64,000 nt of DNA, from NCBI RefSeq assembly GCF_965641715.1, contig NZ_OZ282453.1. One strand, 5' to 3'. Below, piece after piece: positions 57,531 to 57,839 of the stretch; the first letter of the stretch is position 1, and every line of letters starts with the position of its first letter. The position numbers and the translations under genes were made by a program. The notes below the pieces were generated by a model that ran no database searches, had not been told where the DNA came from, and saw only the letters and a list, made by a program, of their open reading frames with translations. Origin of the DNA: Escherichia coli (GTDB lineage: Bacteria > Pseudomonadota > Gammaproteobacteria > Enterobacterales > Enterobacteriaceae).

Positions 57531-57839
57531 GCTTACCTTCCCTGAACGAGCTAACATAAATGCGCCCTTTCTAGCACAGCGAAAAAATGTAAATCCTGAT
57601 AGCAATATGATTGAAAATTAATAACTTTTCGTTAGGCAGTTTTGGGTGTGAGTTGCAAGAGGGGAGACTACTGAATTACTCAAGTTTTATAATCGAGGGG
57701 AAAATGGTGATGGCGCCATAGCAAAACGCCCTCAACCATAAAGGTCGAGGGCGCTTAAGATGTCAAAACCCGCTATCCGTTGAAAAACAATGCTCAATTA
57801 AGGTCAGTGACATTGCGCTAAGAAGCGAATTTTAGAATT

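Follow-up and report, generated by a model that had tools for sequence, protein, structure and literature searches.

Organization of the asnT-yeeJ spacer

We examined the spacer between the tRNA gene asnT and the adhesin gene yeeJ in a 64,000-nucleotide stretch of an Escherichia coli genome (NCBI RefSeq assembly GCF_965641715.1, contig NZ_OZ282453.1). This whole stretch is here referred to as the window, and positions are counted from its first letter. The tRNA gene, a spacer of 309 nt and yeeJ follow each other in this order on the minus strand, and the region 57531-57839 corresponds exactly to the spacer between the tRNA-Asn gene and the yeeJ ATG at 57530-57528 (Table 1). Two features of the spacer had been singled out in an original prediction made from the sequence of the window, namely a stem-loop and a yeeJ reading frame that stays open upstream of the reference-like ATG. 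No strand was given there; the genes as well as the functional orientation of the hairpin are on the minus strand. Our analysis indicates that these are very probably two unrelated and ordinary things in one spacer, the hairpin being the intrinsic terminator of asnT and yeeJ starting at the ATG at 57530.

The promoter-like site ahead of asnT is the sole sigma-70-type consensus match in a scan of positions 57300-58100, and mtfA and serU are located further upstream of it, as in E. coli K-12. On the other side of the spacer, yeeJ is contained in a large open reading frame (ORF) at 49527-57605, which yielded NCBIfam matches to the IatC, YrIlm and intimin families.

A terminator hairpin downstream of asnT

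The stem of the hairpin consists of 12 pairs (10 Watson-Crick and two G-U), or 14 if the two flanking A-U pairs are counted, and the loop is 5 nt in size. The folding energy is -25.5 kcal/mol, compared with -8.4 +/- 2.4 kcal/mol for shuffled sequences (z = -7.1; 0 of 200 shuffles were as good), and the minus-strand sequence directly 3' of the stem is UUUUGCUAU, which has a run of 4 U and 6 U among 9 positions. The fold of the plus strand is weaker (z = -3.1) and is not followed by a T run. Seen in the direction of the tRNA itself, the hairpin is situated 85 nt downstream of the tRNA 3' end. It had been described as a perfect GCGCCCTC/GAGGGCGC stem at about 57727..57754, and a stem-loop is indeed present, at 57754-57726. 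It is not perfect, however: with GAGGGCGT as the 3' arm, 7 Watson-Crick pairs and one G-U pair are formed, and the true stem is the longer one of 12 pairs.

The hairpin region is present, without annotation, in 2916 of 5426 complete E. coli genomes, in each of them at exactly one place. Because of this single copy per genome the hairpin is not a repetitive extragenic palindromic (REP) type of repeat, and a repeated palindrome of the REP or bacterial interspersed mosaic element (BIME) type was ruled out on the basis of these 2916 genomes. A scan of a 1.9-kb stretch against Rfam with E values up to 1 returned only tRNAs and weak chance matches, and no family for the hairpin. The few changes in the stem among E. 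coli strains are single disruptive polymorphisms, and since the spacer is about 97% identical, the comparison of strains says little about either the starts or the stem.

The window contains four tRNA-Asn(GUU) genes within 19 kb, located at 39211-39286, 41619-41694, 43443-43518 and 57840-57915. Each of them has its own terminator, with trailers of 9, 11, about 65 and 85 nt. Like the hairpin at asnT, the terminators of asnU, asnV and asnW are each placed after a single tRNA-Asn gene in the same direction, and combine a GC-rich stem (11-12 pairs) and a 4-5 nt loop with a U run. The tail of the terminator at 41619, UUUUUGCUAU, is nearly identical to the asnT tail. The asnT hairpin differs from the other three in being longer and more stable (-25.5 versus -18 to -21 kcal/mol), in having only 4 consecutive U and in its distance of 85 nt to the tRNA, as compared with 9-11 nt for two of the copies and about 65 nt for one.

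The asnT hairpin is already listed in published maps of 3' ends in E. coli K-12, and the finding is in this sense ordinary and largely known. In a TRS/Term-seq study (PMC10687069, Supplementary Data 3), a 3' terminus at 2044743-2044756 is classified as 'Primary' and assigned to asnT, with the dominant position at 2044749, a signal of 0.994, rank 120 of the tested positions and an adjusted p of 0 in three libraries. The same hairpin is drawn for this terminus, with an energy of -25.7 kcal/mol and a U tract of 4 (PMC10687069). When mapped on the K-12 sequence, position 2044749 is the last U of UUUUGCUAU, which corresponds to position 57718 in the window. Another 3' end in the same hairpin, at 2044735, was reported by Adams et al. 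2021 (PMC7815308) with a Rho score of 0.92, that is, as not Rho-dependent, and the same tables place the K-12 3' ends of asnU and asnV on their U tracts.

Because of the U tail, the counterparts at the other asn genes and the primary asnT terminus on the U tract in K-12, we conclude that the hairpin is the intrinsic terminator of asnT and not a control element of yeeJ. It is a stable, GC-rich stem-loop with a 3' U tract, located downstream of a tRNA unit on the same strand that has a consensus promoter upstream. The Rho-independent 3' ends on the U tract in vivo are taken from the published K-12 data rather than from this strain, for which we infer the same mechanism of termination. In this single-gene transcription unit, RNA polymerase would start at TTGACA/TAATAT, transcribe the tRNA and the 85-nt trailer and stop at UUUUGCUAU after the 12-bp stem. 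As a by-product, the silent adhesin gene yeeJ would be shielded from a strong tRNA promoter. A cis-regulatory leader of yeeJ is not what we found: the hairpin is not conserved with the gene in its paralogs and did not match any described RNA family. Of the earlier suggestion of a regulatory or processing element, only the second part applies, and loosely so, insofar as the tRNA precursor has the hairpin as its 3' end.

The start codon of yeeJ

Above the ATG at 57530, the yeeJ frame contains no stop for 29 codons, up to a TAA at 57620-57618, and the minus-strand translation across this segment reads ...Y(stop)FSIILLSGFTFFRCARKGAFMLARSGKVSMATKKRSGEEINDRQILCGMGIKLRRLTAGICLVTQLVFPMAAAAQG... The 25 open codons originally noted represent the distance to the farthest start codon, TTG 57605. 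This codon and ATG 57557 are the two further in-frame starts of the original prediction, which overlooked a third alternative, the in-frame ATG 57473 at codon 20. In 20,000 shuffles of the spacer, 20% had a frame open for at least 29 codons and 23% had at least two in-frame start codons, and the upstream open frame with its extra starts looks like a lineage-specific product of chance. When the 1072 ATGs on the minus strand of the window were ranked by Shine-Dalgarno pairing, ATG 57530 was in the top 1% and ATG 57557, which has a weak pairing of AAAGGG 7 nt upstream (-4.4 kcal/mol), in the top 13%. The pairing is essentially nil for TTG 57605 and ATG 57473.

For comparison, we used three further lineages (B, C and D) of relatives of the YeeJ N-terminus in the protein collection. 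These are IatC-like paralogs encoded downstream of a gene for a major facilitator superfamily (MFS) transporter, and not downstream of asnT. In a scan of species-representative genomes, no yeeJ orthologue was found beside asnT outside E. coli, only paralogs, distant homologues and contaminated contigs of metagenome-assembled genomes. Proteins of the three lineages begin with MASTNAHQ..., MAGKAHGN... and MTRKGQES..., and their N-termini up to position 20 are MASTNAHQIKNNDQNSLCG-L, MAGKAHGNGDRRGDNTICG-L and MTRKGQESGNCRGDNTVCG-F, with the initiating Met always exactly 19 residues ahead of a Leu or Phe at position 20. In the DNA, codon 20 is CTG, TTG or TTT. There is no in-frame ATG, GTG or TTG upstream of the conserved Met in lineages B, C and D, and in lineages C and D the frame is closed by a stop 1 or 8 codons upstream of it. 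The upstream ATG of yeeJ is AAT in the paralogs, and was created when a TTTAAT block became TTTATG. Ahead of the Met, at a comparable distance of 5-6 nt, the paralogs have retained GGAAGG or AGGGA. The NCBIfam profile NF040978 (IatC N-terminal) also starts at MATKK, since its position 3 aligns to residue 12 of a YeeJ protein extended by 9 residues.

The similarity extends into the leaders, which were aligned over L042:1390-1500, L044:1390-1500 and L043:1-77. Homology between the yeeJ and paralog leaders covers about 110 nt ahead of the ATG and is lost beyond, the shared blocks being TATCAGGA-TCA, GTGCTAGAAA, CATTTAAT/CATTTATG and GGAAGG. The hairpin is not present in the IatC-like leaders in this alignment, and therefore goes together with asnT rather than with the adhesin gene. 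The blocks TATCAGGA-TCA, GTGCTAGAAA and CATTTAAT are candidate promoter or operator elements of the adhesin family.

IatC and other LysM-containing inverse autotransporters (NF040978; intimin/invasin) share with YeeJ the position of the Met and a long N-terminal part, followed by LysM and IAT_beta, and the IatC-like genes in addition share the leader DNA of about 110 nt and the ribosome-binding site. The in-frame ATG upstream and the codon-20 ATG are found in yeeJ only, both being missing in the IatC-like paralogs. On these comparative grounds, the conserved yeeJ start is ATG 57530 with GGGAAGG, and this is probably the codon used. As real starts the two upstream codons fare poorly: neither occurs in any paralog lineage examined, the Shine-Dalgarno sequence is lacking for the TTG and weak for ATG 57557, and a frame of this length is expected by chance about one time in five. 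As a side observation, contigs labelled Bacillota, Collinsella and Alkalicoccobacillus (L009, L010 and L039) carry E. coli-type yeeJ or iatC genes with 70-99% protein identity, most likely due to contamination.

The polymorphisms in 8 aligned E. coli sequences are distributed unevenly around the ATG. In the 29 upstream codons, 4 of 5 substitutions change the amino acid and one TTG is altered to TTA, whereas 3 of 4 substitutions in the first 25 codons after ATG 57530 are silent, although these counts are too small for significance.

All three ATG codons have been used as the start of yeeJ in K-12 annotations: 2044938 (MATKK) is the annotation produced by PGAP in E. coli genomes, 2044995 (codon 20) that of the current NC_000913.3 (NP_416485.5), and 2044911 (upstream ATG) that used by Adams et al. 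2021. The latter start was deduced from the distance of 176 nt past 2044735, after the distance convention had been checked on ompX. Most metagenome gene calls take the upstream ATG 57557. Martinez-Gil et al. 2017 list yeeJ with 2340 rather than 2358 residues, and the primer for their lacZ fusion ends at the codon-20 ATG.

Translation from ATG 57530 would give a long signal peptide, with about 26 residues ahead of the hydrophobic core LTAGICLVTQLVFPMAAAA. A long N-terminal part seems to be a trait of the family, since about 17-25 residues precede the hydrophobic core in distant homologues as well (Atlantibacter, Citrobacter, Yersinia, Pectobacterium and Pseudomonas). The hydrophobic core is identical for every candidate start, and so is the likely cleavage region (...FPMAAAAQG). 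The choice of start therefore alters the signal peptide, as had been proposed, but only in the length of its N-terminal part. Because all starts share the core and the likely cleavage region, the mature YeeJ protein should be the same whichever start is used.

Table 1. Features of the asnT-yeeJ locus, and terminators of the other tRNA-Asn genes in the window.
Feature	Position	Strand	Details
asnT promoter-like site	57934..57962	-	TTGACA, 17-nt spacer, TAATAT; 10/12 consensus positions; 19 nt upstream of tRNA 5' end
tRNA-Asn(GUU), asnT	57840..57915	-	ARAGORN; Rfam tRNA 72.6 bits; same position annotated tRNA-Asn/asnT in E. coli genomes
asnT 3' trailer	57755..57839	-	85 nt, tRNA 3' end to terminator hairpin; read from sequence
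asnT intrinsic terminator	57718..57754	-	Folding, single copy, K-12 3' ends
Hairpin, 5' arm	57743..57754	-	GCGCCCUCGACC
Hairpin, loop	57738..57742	-	UUUAU
Hairpin, 3' arm	57726..57737	-	GGUUGAGGGCGU
U-rich tail	to 57718	-	UUUUGCUAU; its first U belongs also to the stem
yeeJ leader segment	57531..57640	-	Homologous to leaders of IatC-like inverse autotransporter paralogs; alignment
In-frame TTG	57603..57605	-	25 codons upstream; no Shine-Dalgarno pairing; TTA in OkiPb01710; not in paralog leaders
In-frame ATG	57555..57557	-	9 codons upstream; would add MLARSGKVS; yeeJ lineage only; pairing -4.4 kcal/mol
Shine-Dalgarno sequence	57536..57542	-	GGGAAGG, 5 nt ahead of ATG 57530; pairing with 16S rRNA 3' end -8.6 kcal/mol
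Conserved yeeJ start	57528..57530	-	MATKKRSG...; paralog Met, NCBIfam profile, PGAP
In-frame ATG, codon 20	57471..57473	-	MGIKLRRL...; no Shine-Dalgarno pairing
yeeJ coding sequence	49527..57530	-	Inverse autotransporter adhesin, 2667 aa from conserved ATG; ORF listing; Pfam IAT_beta E = 3e-114
tRNA-Asn terminator, first other gene			AGCCUGC...GCAGGCUUUUUGCUUUC; -18.0 kcal/mol
tRNA-Asn terminator, second other gene (41619, asnU-type)			AGCCCGC...GCGGGCUUUUUGCUAUAUC; -19.5 kcal/mol
tRNA-Asn terminator, third other gene			GGCCACUU...AAGUGGCCGGUUUUUUU; -20.7 kcal/mol; about 65 nt past tRNA

Transcription of yeeJ and processing of the asnT transcript

No sigma-70 promoter was detected between the terminator and the yeeJ ATG, either by the scanner or by eye in the 195 nt before the ATG, where no site had more than 4 of 6 matches per hexamer at the correct spacing. 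Published data for bicyclomycin, an inhibitor of Rho, place a region of Rho termination at K-12 position 2045543, about 600 nt into yeeJ and roughly at 56920 in the window, with a score of 8.0 and an increase in downstream reads from 11 to 88. The upstream read count of this measure should not be read as expression of yeeJ, because the interval over which it was taken contains the asnT terminator ends. A Rho region inside yeeJ fits with silencing of this cryptic gene by Rho. Literature searches returned nothing relevant on control of yeeJ by H-NS or Rho, the two matches from systematic evolution of ligands by exponential enrichment (SELEX) being located inside the gene and not in the leader, and the TERMITe and 3'-untranslated region (UTR) valve papers contained nothing for asnT or yeeJ.

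The trailer and the hairpin together (125 nt) fold with an energy of -42.6 kcal/mol (z = -5.0). A second long helix is found in the trailer at about 57834-57764, where UAAAAUUCGCUUCU pairs with GGAUAGCGGGUUUUGA, and it ends in GCGGG and a U run. The 5' arm of this helix varies among strains by a single A and the 3' arm by a single U, and the two do not always change together. Transcripts of the leuX type resemble that of asnT in that a single tRNA gene ends in an intrinsic terminator, which has to be removed for maturation of the 3' end. Polynucleotide phosphorylase (PNPase) removes terminators from tRNA precursors, as seen in the work on leuX, whose Rho-independent terminator Mohanty and Kushner are said to have found in 2010 to be removed by PNPase or RNase P. 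By analogy, the asnT 3' end inside the stem could be an intermediate of leuX-like processing, presumably involving PNPase.

Alternative interpretations

Several observations weigh against the interpretation of the spacer as an asnT terminator followed by a yeeJ gene that starts at ATG 57530. The end at 2044735, which is classified as 'orphan' with 9017 reads in LB at an optical density at 600 nm (OD600) of about 0.4 and 1964 reads on a second condition sheet (PMC7815308), corresponds to position 57732 in the window. It falls within the 3' arm, between GGUUGA and GGGCG, because the sequence column of the table covers 50 nt upstream and 10 nt downstream of the end, as shown by the row for serU. 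It stops 10-14 nt before the site expected, with an intrinsic-terminator score of only 1.04; the TRS terminus on the U tract is 14 nt further on. We infer that it represents a trimmed form of the terminated transcript; it may be an intermediate trimmed by an exonuclease or the result of ligation bias. The U tract, with 4 U in a row, is short, and the consensus scan of the window did not call the hairpin as a terminator, a probable reason being that the stem can be prolonged into the U run. Read-through of small amounts of the asnT transcript into yeeJ leader RNA is given a low probability. As regards the start, yeeJ is silent in laboratory culture, the paralogs used in the comparison are IatC-like genes at another locus rather than yeeJ orthologues from other species, and the upstream ATG, the TTG (7 of 8) and the codon-20 ATG have all been kept in the 8 aligned E. 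coli sequences, so that a second start may be used in E. coli. Separately, the terminator-like site that the scanner reported at 57578-57561 (6 pairs, 3 GC) was attributed to chance, with 1 such site found and 0.8 expected.

A start at ATG 57473 would yield a conventional short signal peptide (MGIKLRRL...), with a positively charged N-terminal part of about 7 residues. This is the choice made in the current MG1655 record in RefSeq (NC_000913.3), and it was used by Martinez-Gil et al. 2017 in their bioinformatics, the methods of which list SignalP 4.1, and in their fusion primer. We nevertheless consider it unlikely, given that the codon lacks Shine-Dalgarno pairing and that its homologs in the three lineages are CTG, TTG and TTT, whereas all of them retain the Met located 19 codons further upstream. 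The intervening 19 codons are open and equal in length in all lineages, and the long N-terminal parts recur in the distant homologues. The opposite choice, a start at ATG 57557 or TTG 57605 that adds 9 or 25 residues to the signal peptide, is consistent with the open frame, with the AAAGGG motif 7 nt ahead of ATG 57557 and with the conservation of this ATG in 8 of 8 aligned E. coli sequences. The annotation used by Adams et al. and the majority of metagenome gene calls start at this ATG. Yet its site is AAT in the paralog lineages, where the upstream frame is free of start codons. The TTG, which is replaced by TTA in one strain, lacks a ribosome-binding site, a frame open this far is at the level expected by chance, and the substitutions, although few, are nonsynonymous in 4 of 5 cases upstream versus 1 of 4 after ATG 57530. 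We therefore hold initiation at either upstream codon to be highly improbable.

For the hairpin, the alternative is that it lies within the yeeJ message as a leaky or regulated attenuator, such that yeeJ is expressed partly by read-through from asnT and repression by PNPase acts on the read-through RNA. The lack of a convincing sigma-70 promoter between the hairpin and yeeJ, the short U tract, the abundant 3' end inside the stem, as if trimmed, and the 8-fold increase in reads within yeeJ upon treatment with bicyclomycin would all be in line with this scenario, as would the increase of about 9-fold in yeeJ mRNA upon loss of pnp (PMC5595812). However, the TRS signal of 0.994 at the terminator (rank 120) is among the strongest in the genome and the coverage of yeeJ in the same study is very low (PMC10687069). 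Moreover, a yeeJ-lacZ fusion is white in the wild type, the folds showed no alternative anti-terminator pairing, and the paralogs have a homologous leader without the hairpin, all of which makes an attenuator very unlikely. A variant that we judge distinctly unlikely is that residual read-through from asnT is the main source of yeeJ leader RNA, which is then normally removed by PNPase and by Rho inside yeeJ. If true, this would explain both the de-repression of yeeJ in the absence of pnp and the absence of an evident promoter; the trimmed trailer could in addition persist as a stable tRNA-derived RNA. It is also conceivable, if most improbable, that the trailer and the shortened hairpin, which together measure about 110 nt and stop near 57732, form a functional and stable 3' spacer RNA derived from the tRNA transcript, for example a sponge for small RNAs like the 3' external transcribed spacer of leuZ. 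The reads at the orphan 3' end and the strong structure (z = -5.0) speak for such an RNA. Against it, there is no matching Rfam family, literature searches turned up no such asnT trailer RNA, the dominant end in the TRS data is on the U tract instead, and the trailer was compared within E. coli only, where all of it is conserved.

Variation at the locus among E. coli strains

The yeeJ gene in the window is a long variant, coding for 2667 residues as compared with 2358 in K-12, and resembles the UMN026 type, which has 906 additional bp. The closest genome found is that of 13C1065T, with 99.8% identity across the spacer; there, yeeJ is annotated as a pseudogene containing an internal stop. Insertions have taken place at the spacer. 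In strain OkiPb01710 (L007), the place of asnT immediately upstream of the spacer is taken by genes of an Rhs element, and the trailer, the hairpin and yeeJ are preceded by a copy of the tRNA 3' end (CCAGTCAGAGGAGCCA). In strain ES11 (L008), an element of the IS3 family is located between the terminator and yeeJ. The contiguous arrangement of asnT and yeeJ is missing in about 45% of the complete E. coli genomes. Two small ORFs on the plus strand of the spacer, at 57463-57621 and 57611-57721, were dismissed as being at the level expected by chance.

Implications for the annotation of yeeJ

The importance of these results is mainly one of annotation hygiene, the hairpin being an ordinary tRNA terminator. 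The comparison with the paralogs favours the MATKK start given by PGAP over both the shorter start in NC_000913.3 and the longer start of many gene callers. The NC_000913.3 start at codon 20 (NP_416485.5) is the one least supported by conservation in the paralogs, and it has no ribosome-binding site. The position of the yeeJ start affects the design of the signal peptide where YeeJ serves as a scaffold for surface display.

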